Positions 13,361 through 28,002 of a stretch of 42,476 nucleotides of DNA are shown one piece after another. The stretch lies in the sequence record MN850617.1. One strand, 5' to 3'. The notes under the pieces were generated by a model that worked only from the letters and a program-made list of their open reading frames with translations, did no database searches and was not told where the DNA came from. Made by a program: the position numbers and the translations under genes. Source of the DNA: Escherichia phage forsur. The stretch's first letter is position 1; every line of letters starts with the position of its first letter.

Positions 13361-16057
13361 ATGCCAATTATGCGTGACCAGCGTGGCGCAAATCTCAACG
13401 CTGCGCAACAGGGCGTACCGAATGTGCAGCAGGCTCAGACTCCGTTTAGTCTCGCAGGCCGCGATACTCGCATCGACACGTTCCCTACTGAGTCCATCCA
13501 GCGCGTACTCAACATGGCCAGTCAGTTGGCTGGCCGTGTCACTGAGCGTGCTAACGAGGAAGAATATCTCAAAGGTGCCAACGCCGCCGCGAGCGGTAAG
13601 GCTGTTGAGGATTTGGATTCGAACTGGCTGACTGCACAGTTCCAGAAAGCTGGTTATAACGACCAATTCAAGCGTATGCAGATGGCTGGCGTAGCCTCTG
13701 AAATCTCGGCCAACATGACCGAGTACGCTAAAATGTCTCCGCAAGACTTCCTGAAAGTCATTGATGAGAAGACTACCGGGCTGTTCGACAATACCGATGG
13801 TATGACCCTTCGCGGTCGCCAGTCGCTGCTGGAGAACCAGCTCACGTTCAGCAACACCCTGATTCGCACGCAGGCTGCGCAGCACGGTAAGTATCTGGTT
13901 GAGCAGCGTGCAGCAATGTACAACTCTCAGGGTAACACTCTGGTTACTCTGGCGGCTCAGGCCAAAGCATCCGGCGACGGCGGTGCGTATGCAAACGCCA
14001 CGGCTGCTACCATGGCTTGGGCTAAGTCCATTCTGGCCGATGACAAGCTGCCGCTGGAAACCCGGCGCACGCAGGTCACGTCCATGATGGGCCTGATGCT
14101 TTCGCAGGATTTGCGTACCCCGGTCGAGACGGCGGTTAACTCCGGCCTGTTCAACGACCTGCCTGCTGAGGACTTGGCCAAGCTGCAAGGTCAGATTCGT
14201 GAATCCAAATCTCGTACCGAGGTTCAGGATAACATGGGTCTGCTGGAGGCAAAGGGTCAGCTTGATGCTCGTCAGGCTGTGTTTGGTGACGTTACGCCGG
14301 GCCAGTACGGTCAGGTGCTCCAGCAGTTGGTGGACAACAAGCTCATCACTGCTTCCGGGTACAGCTCTGCTATCGAGTCCTTCTACAAGGATTACGCCAA
14401 GCAAGCCAAGGCCAGCCAGCTCGGTCAGGCATATGCCACCGGGAACCAGACGTACATGCTCCAGCAGGGCGCGAGTGAGCAGGATGGTGCTGACGCATTC
14501 ATCAAAGCTCGCATGAAGCAGCCGGGCGCTACGGCCAGTTCTGTGGCATTCGACCTGCTGCAAGTTGGCGCACAGACTGGCTTCCCATCTGCGTACAAAT
14601 CCGCAGCCAAACTGATTGAGCCATCCCTGTCGAACTTCGGCACCGTGGATGAGATGAACCCGGATGCTGCCCGTACTGTCACTGGTCTGATTGACCGTGT
14701 GACTGTGGCAGAAAATCAGGGTGACAAGACCGCATGGACTAAACTCCTGTCCGGTCTGTCTGAGGAAAACCAAGAGAAGATGGTGTACATGCGCGAGCAG
14801 ATTAAAGCTGGCCGCACCATCGACCAAGCTGGTCAGGGTTACATCAAGCAGCAGCAGGACTACGCTGGCTTGACCCCTGCTCAGAAATCCCAAATCTTAA
14901 CACAGCGTCAATCTGACGTGAACAGTGTAGTCAACTCACTTGAGTCCCAAGGCTTCTTATCTCGCACTTGGCAGGGCTTAGCTGGTCTGTTCTCAGACAC
15001 TCAGCAGAACCTGTTCCAAGCTCGCGTCGCATCTGGTGACATTACTGCTGCTCAGGAAATGTCGGAGGTGTCTGCCGCGTACCGCGAAGAACTGCAAGCC
15101 GTGGTGCTCAAGAACCCGAACATCACGAAAGACGGTATGGAAGCGCTTGCGTCTGCGAAGCTGGCCAACCGCGTGCTGCGCGTCGGGGAGACTACGTTCA
15201 GTCCCGGCTCTGTGCTTATCGCTCCGAGAAACCAAACTGTTCAGTCTATGCTTGGCCTGCCTGCTGACGTGGCACCTGACCGTATCGGTCGCGCCATCGC
15301 CTCACTTGACCAGAGCAAGGCACCAGAAGGTTTCGAATCGTCGTACTCGTTTATGCCCGATGGCTCACTGAACGTTCAGTTCTTCAACAAGACGGGTGAC
15401 GTTTCCCCGAACAGCTACCGGATTACGCCGCAGGCTATTCAGGAACGTATCCGTGAAGACGACCGTGCAGCCGCCACCGCAAATAACGAAGTCTACGGTG
15501 ATGGGAAACTCTTTGTCGATAAGTCCAGCAACATCGGGATTCGTGTCAATGGCGTGAATACTGCCGGGGTTGATGAGCAGCGTATGCTCTATGCCCGTGG
15601 TAAGCTGATTGAGTTCGAAGGTATCCGCAACACCACGTATCGTGACAGCACTGGCGTCCAGACCAACGGCATCGGTATCTCTGACCGCAGCCCGTACTTC
15701 TCTGAGGGTCAGGCTTCTGGTATGCGCGGTGGTACTGAATGGTCGCCTCGTACAATTCACGACACGTTCGTCAATCACACCAACATGGTAGCCCGGCAGA
15801 TGCCCGGTACTGCGGCAGCGCTGGGGTGGAGTCGTGACAACGACGCCCAGTTCCAGTTCATGATGCAGATTGGTTATCAGGCTGGCGCAAGCTGGTATCG
15901 CAACGAGGGTGCGTACAGCAAGCTGGCTGATGCTATCCGTGTTGGCGACCGTGACAAGGCTGTTCAGGCTCTGGCTGCGACTCCGGCTTACAAGCTGTCG
16001 CAGGATGAGCGCAAGCAGTATTACGTCCAAACTCTACTCGCAGGTATGCAGGAATGA
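13361..16057 (+). CDS. internal virion protein (gp15-like position)
   Basis: 898 aa; call is by position and size. Confidence 0.7.
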   Translation: MPIMRDQRGANLNAAQQGVPNVQQAQTPFSLAGRDTRIDTFPTESIQRVLNMASQLAGRVTERANEEEYLKGANAAASGKAVEDLDSNWLTAQFQKAGYNDQFKRMQMAGVASEISANMTEYAKMSPQDFLKVIDEKTTGLFDNTDGMTLRGRQSLLENQLTFSNTLIRTQAAQHGKYLVEQRAAMYNSQGNTLVTLAAQAKASGDGGAYANATAATMAWAKSILADDKLPLETRRTQVTSMMGLMLSQDLRTPVETAVNSGLFNDLPAEDLAKLQGQIRESKSRTEVQDNMGLLEAKGQLDARQAVFGDVTPGQYGQVLQQLVDNKLITASGYSSAIESFYKDYAKQAKASQLGQAYATGNQTYMLQQGASEQDGADAFIKARMKQPGATASSVAFDLLQVGAQTGFPSAYKSAAKLIEPSLSNFGTVDEMNPDAARTVTGLIDRVTVAENQGDKTAWTKLLSGLSEENQEKMVYMREQIKAGRTIDQAGQGYIKQQQDYAGLTPAQKSQILTQRQSDVNSVVNSLESQGFLSRTWQGLAGLFSDTQQNLFQARVASGDITAAQEMSEVSAAYREELQAVVLKNPNITKDGMEALASAKLANRVLRVGETTFSPGSVLIAPRNQTVQSMLGLPADVAPDRIGRAIASLDQSKAPEGFESSYSFMPDGSLNVQFFNKTGDVSPNSYRITPQAIQERIREDDRAAATANNEVYGDGKLFVDKSSNIGIRVNGVNTAGVDEQRMLYARGKLIEFEGIRNTTYRDSTGVQTNGIGISDRSPYFSEGQASGMRGGTEWSPRTIHDTFVNHTNMVARQMPGTAAALGWSRDNDAQFQFMMQIGYQAGASWYRNEGAYSKLADAIRVGDRDKAVQALAATPAYKLSQDERKQYYVQTLLAGMQE

Positions 16058-19000
16058 TTACACAAGAATCGCTCGACAAGTTCATGGCTCCCAAGCAGGG
16101 GGCCAACGCCCCTACGCTGGTGATTCCAGCTCCCGTAAAAGCTGAGACGCTCAGCACTCCACTGCAAGACGCCACTCGTCAGGGTGCCGTTGAGCAGTTT
16201 GATAAGATGCAGGAACTGGAAGCGACACCAATCGCCACGGCTTTGAGCGCTTCTGTGAAGAACTGGGATACCACTCAGCTCTTTGATGCGGCACTCAACA
16301 AGCCTGTGTTTCAGGCTGACCCGAACTTCCACCCGAACGAGGCATTGCAGAATGTCCAGTTCCCGGTGACTGAGGATGACCGCACATTCCTGTTCAAGTC
16401 CAAATCAATGGACGAGTTCAACTGGCGTACACAGCAGCTCCAAGAGATGCGCGAACGTACCCAGTTGGCTCACACTGCGCCAGTGATGAACGCAGTGCTG
16501 CAATTCGCTGACCCGCTGTACCTCGCCACTGACCTGCTCTCGATGGGAGCAGGCACTGCCCTGAAACTTGGTCGCCTCGGAACCGCCGCTGTCGGTGCAG
16601 CTTCAACTGCTGCCACTATGACAGCGGTGGGTAACGAAGCACGCCCAGTGTCTCAGAACGAGATTATCTTTGCGGCTGCCCTGCACGGGGCGGCCACCAC
16701 TGCATTCTATCGCCCCGCCGCTGCGCCAGCCCGTCGCCTTGATGAGCTGTCGCCGGAGGAATTTGCGGCAGAGATGCAGCGCCGTAACGGTATTGACCCG
16801 AACAACCCTCCGCAGTTCGACCCGAACAATGCCATGTCTCCGCTGGCAATGTCACTGGGCTTCGGGCGTCGCGGTGCCATGGAGACTGACGAGGTTCCTG
16901 AATCCATCCGGGCTGCGGCTCAGCGTGGACTCGACCTCGCTCGCCGTGGTGAGCAGACCAACCCTAAGCGTCCATTCCTTGAGTGGTCACTGTTCAAGTC
17001 GTTCAGTCAGCATTCTGACGAAGCCAGTGCTCTGGCCGGGCGTCTGCTGGATGACCCGCTGAATCCGAACATGACCTCTGCTGCTGCAATCCAGCGCGAG
17101 ACTCAGGCTCGCTTCGGTGTGCTGCTGAACCAGTATGAAGACACCCTGCGTAACGCCCTGACCACTGATGGCTGGAGTAACCTCCGGCGCTTCCGTGACC
17201 CGGTAGGCTATCGCCGGGCGCAGCAGGAGTTCGAGGCTGCTGTTCGTCTTGAGCTGGACAAGCGCATGATTGACAACAACTTCCGTGGCGCTAACCCGAA
17301 TGTGGCCGCTGCCGCCGACCGACTGGGCGAATACTCTCGCGCCGTGGGCCGGGAGCTGGAACGCAAGGGGATGGTTGAGCCGGGCTTCGTGGAGAAGAAC
17401 CCGTACTACTACCCTCGCCGGATGAACGTGACCAAGATTGAGCAGGCTGAGCAGTTGCTCGGTAAGAAGCCATTCATGAAGCAGATGACGACTGCTGTGC
17501 AGCGCGGCATCGGTACTGACCGACCGACTGCCAACGTCATTGCCCATGCCATGGTAGAGCGTGCTCGCCGTAAGGGTTACGGTATTGACAACTCCGGTAT
17601 GATTATCAACAAGGAGGGCCGCGATGAGCTGCTCGAAATCATTGAGAACTCGAAAGGACTCGACGAGGCTGCCAAGGCCCGTGCTTCCGCACTCCTTCGT
17701 GAATCTGGCTCGGACGCTGGCCGACCGTCGATGCTCAAGAGTCGTATCAACATCGACATGATGCACCAGCTCGGCCCTAACTTGCAGGTGCGTGACCTAT
17801 TCGACGACAGCATCACCAGCATGATGGATGCGTACAACCGCCGCATTACCGGGCGACTGGCTCTGCATGAAGCTGGACTGGGTACTGACGCCGAACGCGC
17901 TGCTGCTCGTGAGGCTCTGGCCAAATCCATCAAGGATGGTACGGCTCGTCGTCAGGCGCTGGAGCAGTATGACAACATCATGGCTTATTATCAGGGTGCT
18001 CCGGTCGGTGAGGAAATGCCGCAGTTCATGCGCCAGCTCTCAGCACTGACTCAGGCTACTGGTCTGGCTGCATCCGGTCTGTGGCAGTTGGTGGAATACG
18101 GCACGATGATGCAACGTTTTGGGGCGGTCAATACATTTCGCGCCATGATGCGCACAATCCCGGAAGCACGCGCATTATTTAAGCAGATGAGAGTGACTAC
18201 TAAGGAAGGTCGTCAGTTGGCCTTGGATGCTGAGGAAGCTCTGACTGCTGCGGTGGCGAGCGATATTCGTATGCGTCCAATCATGCAGCACTATGACGAC
18301 ATGTTCTCTGCTGACAAGTCACCGTGGGTTATGCGTCTTGAGCACGCCCGTGACGCCACGATGTTCATCAACATGCAGAAATACATCCACTTCCACCAGA
18401 CTCGAACCAACGCAGCTCTCGTGATGCAGACGCTGCGCAAGGCAGCAGAAGGTGATGCCAAGGCTATTGCCGCGATGAAAACCTATGGTGCCAATGATGC
18501 GCTGCTGGCTGATATCCGTAAGCAGGTTGCCAAGTCCGGCACCAAGCCGGATGCGTGGGATGAGGGTGTGTTCAACCGTACCCGCATCGTCATGATTAAC
18601 GCCATGGATGACGCTATTGTTCGCGCCCGTGTGGGCGAGCTGCCTGCATTCGCAGAGTTCAGTACCCTCGGTAAGTTCCTGTTTACGTTCCGTCGATTCG
18701 TCGCGGCTACGCACAACAAGACTCTGGTTGGTACTTGGAATCGTGAGGGTGCCCGTGGCATGGCTACGCTCATGGCGTACCAGTATCCGCTGGCGATGAT
18801 GGCCACCGCTGCCAACAACGTGATTTCCGGTAAAGCATTCTCTGACCCGGAAACCATGGCACCTAACAAGCTGGCTAGTCAAGCGCTGAATTACCTTGGT
18901 GCTATCGGCTTTGCCTCTGAGTTCACTGGTGTCCTGACTGGTCAGCAGCGTAGCTTCGGTGCGCCGGGGCTGCTGTTCCTTGACCGCGCTTATGGTGTGG

Positions 19001-19161
19001 CGGGTGCAGCTACCAGCGCTGCTGGCGGCGTGCTGACTGGCGATACCGAGCAGGCAGTGTCCGGCGCTCGTAAAGCGGCAGGTAACATCATCCAAGCTAT
19101 CCCACTCATCTCAATCGTGCCGGGCGTCCGAGCACTCAACGAAGCAGTTAAGGGTGAATAA
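16054..19161 (+). CDS. internal virion / ejection protein (gp16-like position)
   Basis: 1035 aa, start overlaps upstream stop (ATGA); call is by position and size; no lysozyme motif recognised. Confidence 0.7.
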   Translation: MITQESLDKFMAPKQGANAPTLVIPAPVKAETLSTPLQDATRQGAVEQFDKMQELEATPIATALSASVKNWDTTQLFDAALNKPVFQADPNFHPNEALQNVQFPVTEDDRTFLFKSKSMDEFNWRTQQLQEMRERTQLAHTAPVMNAVLQFADPLYLATDLLSMGAGTALKLGRLGTAAVGAASTAATMTAVGNEARPVSQNEIIFAAALHGAATTAFYRPAAAPARRLDELSPEEFAAEMQRRNGIDPNNPPQFDPNNAMSPLAMSLGFGRRGAMETDEVPESIRAAAQRGLDLARRGEQTNPKRPFLEWSLFKSFSQHSDEASALAGRLLDDPLNPNMTSAAAIQRETQARFGVLLNQYEDTLRNALTTDGWSNLRRFRDPVGYRRAQQEFEAAVRLELDKRMIDNNFRGANPNVAAAADRLGEYSRAVGRELERKGMVEPGFVEKNPYYYPRRMNVTKIEQAEQLLGKKPFMKQMTTAVQRGIGTDRPTANVIAHAMVERARRKGYGIDNSGMIINKEGRDELLEIIENSKGLDEAAKARASALLRESGSDAGRPSMLKSRINIDMMHQLGPNLQVRDLFDDSITSMMDAYNRRITGRLALHEAGLGTDAERAAAREALAKSIKDGTARRQALEQYDNIMAYYQGAPVGEEMPQFMRQLSALTQATGLAASGLWQLVEYGTMMQRFGAVNTFRAMMRTIPEARALFKQMRVTTKEGRQLALDAEEALTAAVASDIRMRPIMQHYDDMFSADKSPWVMRLEHARDATMFINMQKYIHFHQTRTNAALVMQTLRKAAEGDAKAIAAMKTYGANDALLADIRKQVAKSGTKPDAWDEGVFNRTRIVMINAMDDAIVRARVGELPAFAEFSTLGKFLFTFRRFVAATHNKTLVGTWNREGARGMATLMAYQYPLAMMATAANNVISGKAFSDPETMAPNKLASQALNYLGAIGFASEFTGVLTGQQRSFGAPGLLFLDRAYGVAGAATSAAGGVLTGDTEQAVSGARKAAGNIIQAIPLISIVPGVRALNEAVKGE

Positions 19162-21533
19162 TGGCGAACAGCTATAACACTTACGTGGCGAACGGTTCGC
19201 AGACCGCGTTCCTCGTTACGTTTGAGCAGCGCGTGTTCACACAGATTCAGGTGTACCTCAACTCCGAACTCCAAACGAGCGGGTACACCTACAACTCTGT
19301 GACCAAACAGATTGTCTTTGACACCGCCCCGCTCGCCGGGGTGATTGTCCGTTTGCAACGCTACACCTCTGAGACTCTGCTGAACAAGTTCGGACAGGAC
19401 GCTGCCTTTACGGGCAGCAACCTCGACGAGAACTTCGAGCAGATTCTGTTCAAGGCTGAGGAAACTCAGGAAGCATGGCTCGCGCCGCTTGACCGCGCCG
19501 TCCGTGTCCCGAACTCCGAAGTCTCCATCAACGCATTACCGAACGTCGCTGGCCGCCGCAACAAGGCACTGGGCTTTGACAGCAATGGCCAGCCGTTCAT
19601 GATTCCTCTGGTTGATATCCCTGACTCCGCGCTGGCGATTGCTCTGGCAATGGCTGACGGCGGTAAGTGGATTGGTACACTGGGCGGCGGTACGTTCCTC
19701 GACCGTCAGGATACCGTGTGCCTGTCAGAGTTCACCAACAACACCGGGTATGCCTCTGTCGCCGCTGCGGTACAAGCGTGCTTCGATTATGCCAAGGCTA
19801 ACCACAAGACTGTGGATGCCCGTGGTTGGGTCGGTACTGTCAACTCTACTGTCCTGATGGACGGTATTGAGGTTGTCGGCGGCACTTGGAACGGTACGGC
19901 TGATATCCGGCTGCTGGATTCCACATTCCGCGACTTCAAAGCCTCCACTGTCCGTGTCTGTTACTGGGGTGGTAAGGTTCGCATCTCTGATTATGAGTTC
20001 ACTGGTGCGCCGTCGAACTCCAAAGTAGCGAGCATCCTGTTCCAAGGTAACATCGCCGGGGGCAGCTACGTTATTGAGAACGGTATCCACCGCAATGGCA
20101 AGTTCGGTATTCTCCAGCAGGGTACTGGTGAGGCTATCGACAACGGCGTTATCCGCAACATCGCTATGATGAATATGCTGGGTGACGGCATCGAGATGAA
20201 CGTAATCAACAAGCACTATGATGGTGGCCTGCTGATTGAGAACATCTACCTCGAAGACCTCGACGGTACGACCGCTCCTATCCCTCTGTCCAACTGGGGC
20301 ATCGGTATCGGTATCGCTGGTCAAGGCCCGTTCGGTTGGGATGCTGCTGAAACGCAGTACGCCAAGAACGTGGTTGTCCGTAACGTCCATGCTCCGCGTG
20401 GTGTGCGTCAGGTTGTCCACTTCGAAGTTACCCGCGACAGCGTGTGCGAGAACGTGTTCTGTAACCCTGACCTCGCTGTGTCAACTGGTACTGGCCTGAC
20501 GGCGGCAGGTGTAATCACCTACGGCTGCAAGCGAATGACCATTGACGGCGTGGCTGGTGAGCCAATCAACACTGGCGCAACCTCTCCTAACGCGATTCGT
20601 CTCGTTATGTTGGAGTGGGGTGCGAACCAAGCAGGTGCAGGCGGTACGCCGGGCGCGGCATGTCCTTCGTTTGACATGACTGTGCGCAACGTGCAGACCC
20701 GTACCGGACGCTTCTATGCTGGCGTTGGCTCTGATGACGTGAACAACAACACGTACCATCTGGAAAACATCCACTGCCATACGATGAGTCTGTTCGGCGT
20801 GGCAACGCTGCTGAATATGACCAACGTGACCGGGGTAGTGTTCGATGCTGTAGGCGATGACTCCAGCGGCGGTACTTCATCCAACGGCCTATACCCGCGT
20901 AAGAAGACTGTTCTCAACATGGTGAACGTGAACTTCTACGGCGATGGCATGACTGAGGGTGCGCTGTACAGTAAGGCTCGCTATTCGGATATCAGTACGC
21001 TGAACTCCAACGTGCGTGCTATCCCGTACACCAACATCCAAGGTAACGTAGGCGTCATCCTGTCTCCGGTCAACCGCATGTACACGCTGCCGAATAACCT
21101 TGCAACCCTGACTGGTGGGGAGTTCCCGACTGGTAAAGAGTTCTGTGAGGGGACGGTGCTGTTTAAGACTGACGGCTCTGGTGGCAACTTCATCGTGACT
21201 GGCTTCGGCGCGTACATCCCGGATGACGGGAACAACTTCAAGGTGCGTGCTGCTGCCGCTGGCCAGACGTATCTTGAGCAGAACCTGACTCCGGCTGGTA
21301 CTCAGGCTTCCACCTCGTGGCTGTACCATAAGCCTATCTCGGCTGGTACTCGTCTACAGGTGCCGGGCGCTGGCGCTGGTGGTGCGCCCTTGACGGTTAC
21401 GGTGGTTCGTGCGCCTTATCAGGTGGACAATAACATCGGGAACCCGGTACGCATCGACATTACCCCGGCGCTCGTGACGGCTATCCCTGCTGGGACTCAG
21501 CTCGCCGCGACGTACCCGGTCACTTATATCTAA
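19161..21533 (+). CDS. tail fiber / tailspike with T7 gp17-like N-terminal anchor and probable right-handed beta-helix (depolymerase-like) body
   Basis: 790 aa; N-terminal ~110 aa (MANSYNTYVANGS...VRLQRYTSETLLNKFGQDAAF) parallel recalled T7 gp17 N-domain; middle region has repetitive (I/V)xNG(I/V) beta-helix-like rungs (IENGIHRNGKFGI, IDNGVIRNIAMMN). Confidence 0.85.
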   Translation: MANSYNTYVANGSQTAFLVTFEQRVFTQIQVYLNSELQTSGYTYNSVTKQIVFDTAPLAGVIVRLQRYTSETLLNKFGQDAAFTGSNLDENFEQILFKAEETQEAWLAPLDRAVRVPNSEVSINALPNVAGRRNKALGFDSNGQPFMIPLVDIPDSALAIALAMADGGKWIGTLGGGTFLDRQDTVCLSEFTNNTGYASVAAAVQACFDYAKANHKTVDARGWVGTVNSTVLMDGIEVVGGTWNGTADIRLLDSTFRDFKASTVRVCYWGGKVRISDYEFTGAPSNSKVASILFQGNIAGGSYVIENGIHRNGKFGILQQGTGEAIDNGVIRNIAMMNMLGDGIEMNVINKHYDGGLLIENIYLEDLDGTTAPIPLSNWGIGIGIAGQGPFGWDAAETQYAKNVVVRNVHAPRGVRQVVHFEVTRDSVCENVFCNPDLAVSTGTGLTAAGVITYGCKRMTIDGVAGEPINTGATSPNAIRLVMLEWGANQAGAGGTPGAACPSFDMTVRNVQTRTGRFYAGVGSDDVNNNTYHLENIHCHTMSLFGVATLLNMTNVTGVVFDAVGDDSSGGTSSNGLYPRKKTVLNMVNVNFYGDGMTEGALYSKARYSDISTLNSNVRAIPYTNIQGNVGVILSPVNRMYTLPNNLATLTGGEFPTGKEFCEGTVLFKTDGSGGNFIVTGFGAYIPDDGNNFKVRAAAAGQTYLEQNLTPAGTQASTSWLYHKPISAGTRLQVPGAGAGGAPLTVTVVRAPYQVDNNIGNPVRIDITPALVTAIPAGTQLAATYPVTYI

Positions 21534-21542
21534 GGAGAAACC

Positions 21543-21848
21543 ATGGCATCCGTGAACAAGCAGCTCGACGGGCTGCACCGGATGCTGGTGGAGTATCTGT
21601 CCGACCGCTTGGCCGACGCACGTAGGAAAGATGAGAACGGTAATATCATCGAACCTATGGCGGCGGCTGAGCTGTCCGTGCTTCGCCAGTTCCTGAAAGA
21701 CAACGGCATTCAGGCTGATAAAGACCACGCTGACGACCTGCTCGCGCTGCAAGAACAGCTCAACAACGAGAAGACCGAGGCTGGCCGCAAGGATATCATG
21801 ACTGCTGCCATCAACTCAATCGCAGAAGATAGCGGGATGATGCACTAA
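21543..21848 (+). CDS. terminase small subunit (putative)
   Basis: 101-aa ORF immediately upstream of the large terminase gene; call is by position and size. Confidence 0.6.
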   Translation: MASVNKQLDGLHRMLVEYLSDRLADARRKDENGNIIEPMAAAELSVLRQFLKDNGIQADKDHADDLLALQEQLNNEKTEAGRKDIMTAAINSIAEDSGMMH

Positions 21849-23608
21849 TGGATTTACAACGCCGCATGGTGATGGCAGGAATCGTTCGCGCTCACTACGA
21901 GAACAACTTCCCGCTGTTCCTGCACGACTACTTCGCATGGCTGGGCTTTGACCTCACTGAAATGCAGCTCGACATTGGCCGCTACATGGCCGACCGGACG
22001 CTCAAGAACAAGTGCGTCATGGCGCAGCGTGGTGAGGCTAAGTCCACCATCGGCATTGCTCGCGCTCTGTACGAATTTGTGCAGATGCCGAACGCTACTG
22101 TCCTGCTCGTATCCGGTTCCGACGACTATGCTGGTACGCTGTCGCACGCTATCGTGTCGGCTATCATGCAATGGGACAGGTTGGAATGGTTACGCCCGGA
22201 GACTCGCGCTGGCGCACGTACATCGTACACCGATGGCTTCGACGTGCATCACGCATTCCGTATCCCTGACAAACAACCCTCTGTAAAAGCGGTCGGTATC
22301 TTCGGCCAGTTACAGGGGAACCACGTATCGCTGTTGATTGCCGATGACGTGGAGACTACCAGTAACGGTAGCTCTCCTGCCAACCGCGCCCGTATCAACA
22401 CCCTGACCAAAGAGTTCGCGGCTATCGCCAACGATGGTGCAGAGATTCTGTACCTCGGCACGCCACAGACTCAGGACTCCATCTACAACACGCTCCCGCA
22501 GCGTGGCTTCGACGTTCGCATCTGGCCCGGTCGTTTCCCAACGGTTGAGGAAGAAGAACGCTATGGCGGTTGTCTGGCCCCATGGATTAAGCAGAAGATG
22601 GAGGGCCACCCGGAACTTCGCACAGGCTACGGTATCCTTGGAAACCGTGGTGCGCAGACCGACCCGCAACGCTACTCCGAAGAAAAGCAGTTGCAGAACG
22701 AACGAGACTACCAGCAGGCAGGCTTCCAGTTGCAGTTCATGCTGGACACTTCTCTGTCGGATGCTCTCAAACAGACCTTGCATCTCAAGGACTTAATCTT
22801 CTTCCACGGCTCGCCTATCTCCGCGCCGGAAGTCTTGCATTGGTCGAATCACCCACGGCACGCCGCCGAGCTGCCACTGGATTTCCCACTCGCTCGTGCG
22901 CAGCTATTCTTGGCTGCTGATTTCTCGGACACTTATGTACCATTCGAAAATGCCTCGGCGTTTCTTGACCCTGCTGGTGGTGGGTCGGATGAATCAGTTA
23001 TCATCGTCACCGCTTCTATCGGCCCGTTTATCCACGTCCTTGGTATGCACGTCTACCACGGCGGCCAGACGGAGGAAAACATCCAGACGGCGGTGGCGTG
23101 GCTAGGTGAGCTGGGCTGCAAACGTCTCGTCATTGAGGACAACATGGGCCACGGCACCGTGACCAACATGTACCGAGGTGAGATTAAGCGGCAGAAGCTG
23201 ACCATGGGCTGCGAGGGTGTATACTCGTCCGGCCAGAAAGAGGTGCGTATCATCAACCGCCTCGGCCCAATCATGCAGCGCCACCGTGTGGTTATCCACT
23301 GGAGCGTTGTTGAAGAAGACCTGCGGTTATGCCGGGGTATGGCCAACGGTGGCCGTGAGTACAGCCTGTTCTGGCAGCTCCAGAACCTGACTCAAGACCG
23401 TCAATCCATCCCGCATGATGACCGAATTGAAACCTTAGCCGCTGCCGTGTACCTCCACGCCGAGGTGTTGCAGCAAGACGAAAACGAAGAAGCGGAGCGC
23501 CGTGCAGTCGCTGTGGCCAAAGAGTTCATCGCTAACCCTATGGGGTATGATGACCCGAAATGGCGCAGCCACAAGCCTGTACGCGGTACGCGACGGAGAA
23601 TTAGATAA
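21848..23608 (+). CDS. terminase large subunit
   Basis: 586 aa; KAVGIFGQLQGNHVSLLIADDVETTSNGSS...ILYLGTPQTQDSIYNTLPQRGFDVRIWP parallels recalled T7 gp19 ([30 protein letters not shown]...VIYLGTPQTEMTLY). Confidence 0.95.
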   Translation: MDLQRRMVMAGIVRAHYENNFPLFLHDYFAWLGFDLTEMQLDIGRYMADRTLKNKCVMAQRGEAKSTIGIARALYEFVQMPNATVLLVSGSDDYAGTLSHAIVSAIMQWDRLEWLRPETRAGARTSYTDGFDVHHAFRIPDKQPSVKAVGIFGQLQGNHVSLLIADDVETTSNGSSPANRARINTLTKEFAAIANDGAEILYLGTPQTQDSIYNTLPQRGFDVRIWPGRFPTVEEEERYGGCLAPWIKQKMEGHPELRTGYGILGNRGAQTDPQRYSEEKQLQNERDYQQAGFQLQFMLDTSLSDALKQTLHLKDLIFFHGSPISAPEVLHWSNHPRHAAELPLDFPLARAQLFLAADFSDTYVPFENASAFLDPAGGGSDESVIIVTASIGPFIHVLGMHVYHGGQTEENIQTAVAWLGELGCKRLVIEDNMGHGTVTNMYRGEIKRQKLTMGCEGVYSSGQKEVRIINRLGPIMQRHRVVIHWSVVEEDLRLCRGMANGGREYSLFWQLQNLTQDRQSIPHDDRIETLAAAVYLHAEVLQQDENEEAERRAVAVAKEFIANPMGYDDPKWRSHKPVRGTRRRIR

Positions 23609-24288
23609 TGTCCATCATCACCATCACTGATGCTCAGCGGTATGAGCTTGGTTATCGCTGCGGTATCGCAGCTAACGAGACTCAGCGCTTCATCAATGAC
23701 ACCCGTGCAGTGACGGCAGCTCAGGCTGCTGACATTGAAACGGCTATCACCAATCTGGTGGCGGCACTTGAGGCTGCTGGCTATGCTGGTACGCCGGAAG
23801 GTTCCGCTCTGCTGGCTGACGGCGCTACTGTATCTGTGGTCAACTCCGCAGGCAACGACGCGCACAATGCCACAGCCAACGTTACTGGCACCACGCTGGA
23901 TAATGTACAGCTCGTCCTGTCTACCGCAGCACTGGTAGACCACACTGACGCAACTGAGATTCGTCGCTTCGACGGCTCTATCCTTGGCATCACCACCGCT
24001 ACGGCCCGTGTAGCTGATGGTCTGCTGAGCAACGTGCGGCTCCCGGCCAACGCTGATGCAGTGGTTAACGGTACGGCTTATTCCGTCCGTAACTCTGCTG
24101 GCGCTGATGGCCACAACGCCACCGCTGTCGTGGCAAGCAACGGTGCTCTCTCCGGCTTCAACCTCGCCGCTACTGTGGCTATGGTGGATAACGGTGATGC
24201 ACTGGCAATCCCGGTCACTGGCACGTACACCAACACCGTGACCTTCGCTGTTTCCGCTGGTGCAATCACTGGCATTACCCTCTCTTAA
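23608..24288 (+). CDS. hypothetical protein with internal sequence repeat
   Basis: 226 aa; two similar segments (TVSVVNSAGNDAHNATANVTG / YSVRNSAGADGHNATAVVASNG); Ala/Thr/Gly/Asn-rich; located between terminase and lysis genes. Confidence 0.6.
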   Translation: MSIITITDAQRYELGYRCGIAANETQRFINDTRAVTAAQAADIETAITNLVAALEAAGYAGTPEGSALLADGATVSVVNSAGNDAHNATANVTGTTLDNVQLVLSTAALVDHTDATEIRRFDGSILGITTATARVADGLLSNVRLPANADAVVNGTAYSVRNSAGADGHNATAVVASNGALSGFNLAATVAMVDNGDALAIPVTGTYTNTVTFAVSAGAITGITLS

Positions 24289-25871: not shown

Positions 25872-26039
25872 GGGCATCTGAAAGCTGACACATTGAACAG
25901 GCCGTGGGTGCAATACCCCGGCTTGAAAATTGAACGTTTATGCGTGGGCCTCCCTCGACCCGAATGACCGCGCGTACCCCCATGACGTGTGCGCGGATTA
26001 GCCTCGCGACGTGCGCGATATTGCTCGCGTGCGCTGCGC

Positions 26040-26450
26040 GGCGCGTCAAGAGGATTGCCTGCGTGCGGTATAGCTCGTGCGTGTCGCGTTTCATCGTCTG
26101 CCGTGTGGCGTGCTGTGCGCTGTCCTGCTGGCTGTGCTGTGCGGTGCTGTCCTATGGGGACGCTCTGCGCTGGCTGTGCTGTGCTGCGTGCTGCGCTCGG
26201 TCGGGCGGGTATCTGTCTCTTTTGCCGTGGTACGCTCTGCGCCGTGGTGGTGCTGTGTGGTGGTGGTGCTGCCGTGGTGCTGTCCTGTCTGCTGGTCTAC
26301 TGTCTGCGCCGCCAGCTCTGCGCGTCATGCTCTGCTACCTGCTGCTACTGTCCTACTGCGTTCACTGGCTGCCGCCTGTCATCCTGTCGGATTCCATCCG
26401 TTGCCGTTCCGCGCTCGCTTGTTTCGGCTGCGCCGCGCTCGCTCTGCGTA
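26040..26450. repeat. A-depleted (C/G/T only on + strand) low-complexity block with degenerate GCTG/CTGTG/GGTG repeats; candidate terminal-repeat region
   Basis: Adenine is nearly absent on the + strand over ~400 bp, so no + frame contains a stop; non-coding position between the last late gene and the early promoters. Confidence 0.6.
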
Positions 26451-26462
26451 TCTAGCGATACA

Positions 26463-26485
26463 TATCACTATAGTCACTTTCATAA
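26463..26485 (-). promoter_or_regulatory. inverted exact copy of the T7-class promoter-like element at 4585..4607 (would fire leftward into the A-depleted block)
   Basis: + strand TATCACTATAGTCACTTTCATAA is the reverse complement of 4585..4607 (23/23). Confidence 0.4.
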
Positions 26486-26499
26486 TTATCTATTGATAT

Positions 26500-26590
26500 C
26501 AGTAACTTATAACCTATCTGATAACGGTATCTATCCTATGCAATAACCTATTCAATCAAATATTTATTCCTAATGATTACAGTAACTTAT
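26500..26590. repeat. AT-rich segment with 11-bp direct repeat CAGTAACTTAT (26500..26510 and 26580..26590)
   Basis: Read directly; copies are 80 bp apart, each preceded by TGAT; candidate origin or packaging iterons. Confidence 0.4.
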
Positions 26591-26622
26591 CCACTATTTG
26601 AGCTATTCAGTGAAAATAAATC

Positions 26623-26651
26623 TTGCAATGCTGTTTGTGATTTGCTGTAAT
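26623..26651 (+). promoter_or_regulatory. host sigma70-type early promoter P1
   Basis: -35 TTGCAA (26623..26628), 17-bp spacer, extended -10 TGcTGTAAT (hexamer 26646..26651); A-rich UP-like tract upstream. Confidence 0.6.
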
Positions 26652-26726
26652 TCTCATCGCCGGGTAGCAGAACATCGCTACACGGTGGCAAGACGGTAAC
26701 ACTGCTCTTTAACAATCTGGAGTGTA

Positions 26727-26755
26727 TTGACAAGGCAAGCTCACTATGCTGTAAT
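26727..26755 (+). promoter_or_regulatory. host sigma70-type early promoter P2
   Basis: -35 TTGACA (26727..26732), 17-bp spacer, extended -10 TGcTGTAAT (hexamer 26750..26755). Confidence 0.65.
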
Positions 26756-26863
26756 GCTTCCAGTCAGCCAGACAAGCCAAACAGTCATGGATAAAGACGT
26801 TAAAACCCGCGCAGGCTAACTGGTACGGATTATTCATCTCAGAATGGGCGCTGAATAAAACGG

Positions 26864-26892
26864 TTGACAGGATGAAACGAGTATGCTGTAAT
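26864..26892 (+). promoter_or_regulatory. host sigma70-type early promoter P3
   Basis: -35 TTGACA (26864..26869), 17-bp spacer, extended -10 TGcTGTAAT (hexamer 26887..26892); AATAAAA upstream. Confidence 0.65.
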
Positions 26893-26944
26893 ACGCTCCA
26901 GATTGACAGGGCAAGCAAGCCTGACAGTCAGTAGTAAAAAGTAG

Positions 26945-26973
26945 TTGACAAGCTGAATACACTGTGTTGTAAT
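26945..26973 (+). promoter_or_regulatory. host sigma70-type early promoter P4
   Basis: -35 TTGACA (26945..26950), 17-bp spacer, extended -10 TGtTGTAAT (hexamer 26968..26973); GTAAAAAG upstream. Confidence 0.65.
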
Positions 26974-27451
26974 CAGCACCGAGTTGGAAGGATGCAAAAC
27001 ATCCTGCTCTGAGTGAACGCAAACTGGCCGCGTAGTGTCACGGCTCACTGGGTATCCGCCGCAGGTTGGAACTGGGTGAGGCATCGCCGAAAGGCAACGG
27101 TATCGCAACAATGCTAACGCCGTAGGGGTAGCGCCTGATGCAAGGTAACGGAGAAGCGCGATAGACGCAGCGCAGTATCAGTACAATACCAAACGTCTTA
27201 TAAGGCGCGGAGTATAGCGGGTAGGTAGTCAAACGGCTTGTTAGCTGGCAACGGTGAGCAAGATACGCGACGGACTGCTGGAAGACTCCTGAGAGTGGAT
27301 GCAGACAATATCCACAGCGCGAAATGGGCGGGGCGATTTTTCAGGGTAGTGAATCCGACAAGCCAATCAATGCCACTGAGTGCAGACTGTACGGCGCGTC
27401 ACAATGGGTTCACTATCCACCTGAAAATAGCCAACAACTGGAGAAATAACT

Positions 27452-27844
27452 ATGTACCGTATCTATGCAAGCGCATATCGTCAGAACAACGCTGAGTGTG
27501 TTAATCTGGCGCTTCATTGCAAGGCACTGCGAACGGTGCAGGATATGTTCGGAGTGATTCCGGTCACACTGACAGGCAAGTTCGACAATGCGTATGAGTT
27601 AAGCATGGTCTTTCCTGTCGATGGAATCTACGAAATCAGACAGGCTGTTAAGCTGTTCTGTAAAGCCTTTGAACAGGACTGCATCATGGTAGTGACCGAT
27701 GACAATGATGCAATCTTCATGGATTCACCATATCCGGGCAAGCCTGCTGGCAAGTTTGTCAGCAAGACAGAAGCGGAGATGGAAGCCGGGCAGTTCACTG
27801 CTTGGACTTACGATGGTGAGCAATTTTGGGTAGTGGAGGCGTAA
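27452..27844 (+). CDS. hypothetical early protein (130 aa), first gene after the leader
   Basis: ATG 27452 with GGAG 8 nt upstream; ORF in track. Confidence 0.7.
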   Translation: MYRIYASAYRQNNAECVNLALHCKALRTVQDMFGVIPVTLTGKFDNAYELSMVFPVDGIYEIRQAVKLFCKAFEQDCIMVVTDDNDAIFMDSPYPGKPAGKFVSKTEAEMEAGQFTAWTYDGEQFWVVEA

Positions 27845-27845
27845 T

Positions 27846-27917
27846 ATGTTCACTGCACTCTGTGTGATAGCGGCGGCGTGCTGGCTGATTGACCAGCGCC
27901 TGTCTAAGCGAGCCTGA
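27846..27917 (+). CDS. tiny hydrophobic peptide (23 aa), speculative
   Basis: ATG follows upstream stop by 1 nt with GGAGG 8 nt upstream; MFTALCVIAAACWLIDQRLSKRA. Confidence 0.25.
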   Translation: MFTALCVIAAACWLIDQRLSKRA

Positions 27918-27918
27918 T

Positions 27919-28002
27919 ATGTGGGACTTACTGGTAGCGTTGTTCTGGTTTGTCTTTGCAGGCTTGTGGATTTACTGGTTGACTCGTCCCAAATTATGGT
28001 GA
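27919..28002 (+). CDS. tiny hydrophobic peptide (27 aa), speculative
   Basis: MWDLLVALFWFVFAGLWIYWLTRPKLW; weak RBS. Confidence 0.25.
   Translation: MWDLLVALFWFVFAGLWIYWLTRPKLW

Follow-up and report, generated by a model that had tools for sequence, protein, structure and literature searches.

The putative colanidase tailspike of Escherichia phage forsur and its relationship to the bacterial protein WcaM

The tailspike gene of Escherichia phage forsur very probably encodes an enzyme that degrades colanic acid, the M-antigen exopolysaccharide of the Enterobacteriaceae. The sequence analyzed (MN850617.1; 42,476 nucleotides, referred to as the window) is the complete genome of a podophage of the T7 supergroup, genus Bonnellvirus, family Autographiviridae. 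Its 790-residue tailspike is read as the single receptor-binding protein of the virion, composed of a T7-type anchor, a colanic acid-cutting beta-helix, and a distal beta-barrel. Shown in this analysis were the gene, where it lies, its domain architecture, its fold, its homology to characterized colanidases, and the conserved residues. Hydrolysis to repeat units (NST1), cleavage of the glucose-fucose linkage (Phi92 gp150), and halo formation on mucoid hosts (J8-65) were taken from the literature on relatives.

The substrate was indicated by sequence comparison. Residues 89 to 790 of the tailspike matched PHROG 6117, "colanic acid degradation," with an E value of 2.5e-228. The tailspike and the colanic acid-degrading enzyme (CAE) of NST1 (GenBank HM214492/ADI49571) are both 790 residues long and were identical at 734 of these positions (93%) without gaps. 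The NST1 enzyme was reportedly described by Firozi et al. in 2010. The anchor, the helix, and the C-terminal domain are common to both proteins, and the 56 substitutions are scattered in the window protein. The tailspike shared 86% amino acid identity with J8-65 gp40, which has a three-residue and a one-residue insertion in helix loops and otherwise shows allelic differences. With megablast, the nucleotide identity was 97.2% to usur and 96.3% to glasur, where both genes are annotated as "tailspike colanidase," and 82 to 88% to NST1, J8-65, and other Bonnellvirus spikes. The colanidase tailspikes of J8-65 (gp40), usur, glasur, and megetsur have the same gene position in genomes that are alike at the genus level. 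The window gene is an almost identical allele of one whose enzyme has been characterized by experiment. Sister genomes carry the corresponding annotation, and the gene is already known.

More distant relationships were in agreement. By sequence alone, residues 162 to 790 matched the colanidase tailspike Phi92 gp150 (6E0V, apo; 6E0W, product bound) with an E value of 2.6e-63, at approximately 28 to 34% identity. Phi92 is a myovirus whose baseplate is multivalent; gp150 has another N-terminal attachment and lacks the T7-type anchor. A precomputed match to PF27800 was present on all close homologs. The Pfam scan at an E value of ≤1, done with a library that does not include PF27800, matched only PF03906 and none of the pectate-lyase or Beta_helix families (e.g., PF12708 and PF13229). 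The protein has a predicted fold of the beta-helix class but does not belong to the pectate-lyase/Beta_helix sequence families. The initial annotation of the window, made from the letters and open reading frames (ORFs) only, had described the body as polysaccharide depolymerase-like and had proposed a profile search against pectate-lyase and tailspike families. The depolymerase assignment was borne out by PHROG 6117, the NST1 identity, and the 6E0V-type fold described below, with colanic acid as the probable substrate; the profile search led to PHROG 6117 and not to the pectate-lyase families.

Spikes with 81 to 85% nucleotide identity were found in Bonnellvirus-like phages on the Enterobacter cloacae complex, E. 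hormaechei, Cronobacter sakazakii, and Kosakonia cowanii. This range of host genera is more in keeping with a receptor that enterobacterial genera have in common, namely colanic acid, than with an antigen specific to one serotype.

The fold was consistent with this assignment. The AlphaFold2 model, a monomer built on 19 homologs, was confident from about residue 185 to the end and was nearly all beta-strand, with 53% strand in the helix body (residues 186 to 605). In the Foldseek comparison with the PDB, the top match was the Phi92 colanidase tailspike 6E0V (E value of 3.5e-35; template modeling score of 0.68 on the target), whose beta-helix and distal beta-barrel are both present in the model. 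Below it ranked tailspikes of the classical right-handed beta-helix type, those of HK620, Sf6, CBA120 TSP3, and Det7 (E values of 1e-6 to 1e-4); with Pam1 and several depolymerases of Klebsiella included, the E values extended to 1e-3. Depolymerases of Acinetobacter and other enzymes with a beta-helix, among them AlgE4, were matched as well. The hydrolytic tailspikes of HK620, Sf6, P22, and CBA120 likewise combine a helix glycanase with a modular N-terminal attachment and a C-terminal cap, but they have O-antigen substrates, belong to other sequence families, and show 9 to 13% identity to the window protein in structural comparison.

Short periodic rungs with conserved Asn, Gly, and Ile, which the initial annotation had illustrated with three peptides, were confirmed. 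The peptides are located at residues 305 to 317, 326 to 338, and 405 to 415, and all are in predicted beta-strands. A rung motif (hydrophobic residue, any residue, R/E/D, N, hydrophobic residue) occurred six times in residues 304 to 432, compared with an expectation of 0.73. None of 2,000 protein shuffles reached six, indicating that the periodicity is real and not due to chance. The rung register read from the DSSP string alone is ambiguous. The structure prediction proposed in the initial annotation gave an all-beta solenoid with 6E0V as the best solved match. The helix had been expected to fill the remaining 680 residues or so after the anchor; this applied to about residues 186 to 605; residues 105 to 185 form a linker and residues 606 to 790 a separate domain.

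The resemblance of the first 110 or so residues to the T7 gp17 anchor, also proposed initially, was real but modest. PF03906 (Phage_T7_tail) matched residues 2 to 104 at profile positions 2 to 109 of 157 with an E value of 5.8e-6, and the score of 26.5 bits passed the gathering cutoff of 25.2 by a small margin. PHROG tail-fiber families matched residues 4 to 104, and the PDB entry 8es4_G (Gp44) matched residues 1 to 104 (E value of 8e-4). In tblastn with residues 1 to 160, gp17-type tail fibers of LIMEzero, LIMElight, P-SSP7, cyanophages, and pelagiphages were found at 29 to 50% identity. The domain is predicted to attach the spike to the tail. T7 gp17 itself has a homologous N-terminal domain (PF03906) and the same position after gp16. 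Its distal part consists of a coiled-coil shaft and a small nonenzymatic tip domain, whereas the distal part of the window spike is an enzymatic beta-helix.

The linker had a predicted local distance difference test (pLDDT) value below 50 in the monomer model, and the homologs suggest that it travels with the anchor. One homolog (P0019) was 51% identical over residues 1 to 150 and then continued into an unrelated beta-helix body (PF13229). Three others (P0005 to P0007) were at least 95% identical to the tailspike until about residue 200 and 35 to 50% identical thereafter. Homologs with foreign anchors resembled the tailspike only from about residue 180 to 200 onward. The module junction lies at about residues 180 to 220, and the anchor module extends a little beyond the match to PF03906.

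Residues D342, N347, W379, H420, and E422 were invariant in an alignment of 40 family members from phages and bacteria, and Q320, E345, R416, and Q417 were conserved in at least 90% of them; the window protein has every one of these residues. They belong to the motifs GILQQG (316 to 321), GDGIEMNV (341 to 348), NWGIGIGIAG (378 to 387), and RQVVHFE (416 to 422), of which the last three lie in predicted strands of the central coils. The motifs of this region are kept in Phi92 gp150 and in E. coli WcaM. The tailspikes of HK620, P22, and Sf6 have catalytic Asp/Glu pairs. By analogy with these pairs, D342, E345, and E422 are candidate catalytic carboxylates, and this conserved set offers specific targets for mutagenesis.

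The mode of cleavage can be approached through the relatives. According to PMC9143390, the recombinant NST1 enzyme released reducing ends together with a product of 1,148 Da but no monosaccharides, and the authors assigned this product to the colanic acid repeat unit. Phi92 gp150 is stated to hydrolyze the beta-1,4 glucose-fucose linkage of the backbone (Xu et al. 2025, as cited in PMC13450770). In PMC4179555, J8-65 formed expanding halos on mucoid E. coli, and the outer halo was free of phage yet helped T7. A phage-free outer halo fits a diffusible free spike enzyme. Because of these products, cleavage, and halos, and in agreement with the unmatched pectate-lyase families, the window spike is most likely an endo-acting hydrolase and not a lyase of the pectate-lyase type.

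The recombinant NST1 hydrolase is given as 73.3 kDa in PMC9143390, compared with 84.1 kDa computed for its 790-residue homolog in the window; residues 111 to 790 of the window protein alone compute to 71.7 kDa. The N-terminal anchor may therefore be missing from the published preparation, either truncated or removed by proteolysis; alternatively, the mass read from the gel may be inaccurate.

The spike would act as a homotrimer, by analogy with solved tailspikes. Residues 1 to 104, together with the linker up to about residue 185, would dock it on the tail, and residues 606 to 790 would cap it. The beta-helix would bind colanic acid and hydrolyze the polymer internally to single repeat units, so that the virion could tunnel through the digested slime to the cell surface. 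Spike protein set free when the cell lyses would diffuse and produce expanding halos. Colanic acid would then be the primary receptor that defines the host range. That the spike defines the host range, as initially proposed, is plausible in view of the published J8-65 halo phenotypes.

Several points weigh against the colanidase reading. The AlphaFold2 model represents a single chain in which the first 183 residues are of low confidence (pLDDT < 50), as would be expected for the monomer of a trimeric anchor. The catalytic residues were assigned by conservation only, 56 of the 790 positions differ from NST1, the assayed relative, and no generic beta-helix or pectate-lyase family was matched with the Pfam library lacking PF27800. 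Close relatives were isolated on the nonmucoid K-12 strain MG1655 (PMC7552041), indicating that colanic acid may not be the sole determinant of infection. The substitutions relative to NST1 would also be compatible with a beta-helix depolymerase that has shifted from colanic acid to a different polysaccharide, either an O-antigen or a group 1 capsule. Bodies within the genus diverge until only about 45% of positions are identical, although the anchor is conserved, the Lidtsur spike has been called "a unique version" (PMC7552041), and near relatives occur in phages of Enterobacter, Cronobacter, and Kosakonia. A changed substrate was nevertheless considered very improbable and was rejected: the 93% identity to the characterized enzyme is gapless, all family-invariant residues are kept, and hosts in several genera fit colanic acid better, since it is generally known to be common to these enterobacterial genera.

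A polysaccharide lyase acting by beta-elimination at glucuronic acid was judged slightly more remote still. The pectate-lyase analogy of the initial annotation would favor it, as would the structural neighbors of the C-terminal domain, some of which are lyases (K1 lyase and AP22 gp54). Colanic acid is generally known to contain glucuronic acid, but this sugar is located in the side chain and not in the backbone. The Pfam scan at an E value of ≤1 matched the T7 anchor and no pectate-lyase family, and the invariant Asp/Glu residues resemble the carboxylate pairs of the hydrolytic HK620, P22, and Sf6 tailspikes. The lyase mechanism was rejected on the missing pectate-lyase match together with two reports on relatives: the NST1 enzyme yields reducing ends and a product with the mass of an intact repeat unit (PMC9143390), and the backbone Glc-Fuc bond is hydrolyzed by Phi92 gp150 (PMC13450770). 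A possibility of more weight, albeit short of probable, is that colanic acid degradation only clears a barrier and that a secondary receptor (lipopolysaccharide core or an outer-membrane protein) and another tail component set the host range. The isolation of relatives on MG1655 is consistent with this, and so are two statements in PMC4179555, that the K-12 strain IJ1133 was chosen specifically because J8-65 does not grow on it and that J8-65 kills mucoid cells poorly by itself. The PHROG and Pfam scans of the neighboring genes revealed no other receptor-binding gene around the structural module, but a nozzle and internal proteins were identified. The spike is the only recognizable receptor-binding protein, and in other tailspike podophages the glycan is generally known to be the primary receptor. 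A secondary receptor would refine the colanidase reading and is not an exclusive alternative to it.

As a member of a characterized enzyme family, the gene is readily recognized and needs no further attention as a discovery; for this window the assignment is mostly bookkeeping. The family is of practical interest. Colanidase spikes strip the colanic acid slime that is overproduced by mucoid, phage-resistant E. coli mutants, and they help other phages in cocktails, as in the synergy of J8-65 and T7. They also serve for removing colanic acid from plasmid preparations and for making colanic acid oligosaccharides.

The core of the helix is also homologous to the host's Tat-exported protein WcaM, whose gene is the last one in the colanic acid operon of E. 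coli. With hhalign, residues 302 to 605 of the tailspike aligned with residues 152 to 444 of E. coli WcaM over 273 columns (probability of 99.4%; E value of 5e-22), and BLASTP against WcaM of E. coli K-12 (b2043) gave 32% identity over 253 residues (E value of 2e-17). The motifs GDxIExNV, NWGIGIGxAG, and RQxxHxE are common to both proteins, and all family-invariant residues are shared. WcaM differs in being a 464-residue bacterial protein with a twin-arginine signal (SRRTFL), and it has neither the virion anchor nor the distal beta-barrel. The tailspike scored 63.8 and 62.1 bits with the NCBIfam WcaM equivalogs TIGR04004 and NF007517, over residues 304 to 464 only, compared with cutoffs of 794.6 and 808. 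Scores so far below the cutoffs indicate that the tailspike carries a homologous domain and is not an ortholog of WcaM. A genuine WcaM representative (P0066) passed the equivalog cutoff with 858 bits.

The family appears to be small. In an exhaustive HMMER search of 1.84 billion cluster representatives (50% identity) with the helix core, only 55 relatives were found at an E value of ≤1e-3. They form two groups, spike-sized proteins and WcaM or WcaM-like proteins of 410 to 500 residues. Apart from P0066, most of the WcaM-sized relatives carry an RR signal motif and share the motifs of the catalytic region. The homology between tailspike and WcaM is already on record, since Pfam PF27800 is named "WcaM." RefSeq labels WcaM a "putative colanic acid biosynthesis protein." The literature search found no paper stating that WcaM is a colanidase or colanic acid hydrolase; a paper on phage ZCKP1 mentions merely a "wcaM superfamily protein." The common core hints at a possible role for this long-unassigned E. 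coli gene. WcaM could be an endogenous periplasmic endo-colanidase with carboxylates equivalent to D342 and E422, serving as a glycanase for trimming or clearance within the pathway, like PslG, BcsZ, and AlgL of other exopolysaccharide systems, and the spike body could have been captured from such a host gene or share a recent common ancestor with it. This proposal is a close call that leans slightly toward the negative.

The PF27800 body was found behind three attachment domains: the T7-type anchor, the P22 head-binding domain PF09008, and Tail_spike_N PF18668. The fusions in two P22-like genomes and a myovirus contig (Table 1) indicate that the colanidase body has been exchanged across three virion architectures. 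Exchange of anchors and bodies is familiar for tailspikes and is not new.

The tailspike ORF, which the initial annotation had called a tail fiber gene, has exactly the coordinates given there, with an ATG start and a TAA stop. After the RNA polymerase gene, the Pfam and PHROG scans gave the order portal, scaffold, major capsid, tail tube A, nozzle, gp14-like protein, and two large internal virion proteins, followed by the tailspike gene, TerS, TerL, spanin, and endolysin. This order places the gene in the position of gp17 (tail fiber). The ATG shares one base with the TAA of the upstream gene, which encodes an internal virion protein of 1,035 residues, in the sequence TAATG. This overlap suggests translational coupling of the two genes. 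The next gene starts 9 bases past the tailspike TAA and is preceded by a strong AAGGAGA. The coordinates of the features are listed in Table 1.

Table 1. Coordinates of the tailspike gene, its predicted domains, and other features (positions in the window unless a locus, L004 to L007, is named)
Feature	Coordinates	Strand	Basis or remark
Tailspike colanidase gene	19161..21533	+	ORF list; neighbors by Pfam and PHROGs; same order and annotation in usur
Shine-Dalgarno-like AAGGGTG, 5' of tailspike ATG	19150..19156	+	Read from sequence
T7 gp17-type N-terminal anchor, residues 1-104	19161..19472	+	PF03906, PHROG, PDB, tblastn
Linker/neck, residues 105-185	19473..19715	+	Low pLDDT; homolog comparison
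Right-handed parallel beta-helix catalytic body, residues 186-605	19716..20975	+	AlphaFold2 model, Foldseek, hhalign
WcaM-homologous core (PF27800), residues 302-605	20064-20975	+	hhalign
Putative active-site region, residues 316-422	20106..20426	+	Conservation, 40 phage and bacterial family members
Distal C-terminal beta-barrel, residues 606-790	20976..21530	+	Absent in WcaM; invariant PGAGAGG loop, residues 735-741
gp16-like internal virion protein gene	16054-19161		Directly upstream of tailspike gene; Pfam and PHROGs
TerS gene	21543-21848		Directly downstream of tailspike gene; Pfam and PHROGs
Single-subunit RNA polymerase gene, PF00940	2124-4559		Pfam
226-residue ORF right after TerL	23608-24288	+	Conserved; "hypothetical protein" in usur, J8-65, and LIMEzero
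E. coli K-12 wcaM	L004 4503-5897	-	Last gene of colanic acid (wca/cps) operon
PF27800 body with PF09008	L005 4936-7146; L006 6001-8211		~41-kb P22-like genomes, right after gp7/gp20/gp16-type ejection genes
PF27800 body with Tail_spike_N PF18668/phiTE_241_N	L007 6001-9048		154-kb myovirus contig

The search for a DNA-level internal repeat in the 226-residue ORF that follows TerL gave just two short, weak two-copy matches. At the protein level, a segment of this ORF is duplicated internally, as seen in SVVNSAGNDAHNATANV and SVRNSAGADGHNATAVV. It is matched in two stretches by each of two PHROGs of unknown function.

The genome has a GC content of 55.4%, and the start point of the sequence appears arbitrary. 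Many small, early-type ORFs are located at about 26 to 42 kb of the window. At 26 to 27 kb the GC content falls to 0.51 and the AT skew is strongly negative (-0.16); beyond this point the GC skew is persistently positive across the region of small ORFs, as far as the window extends. The shift in composition at positions 26001 to 28000 may mark a genome end or an early promoter region.

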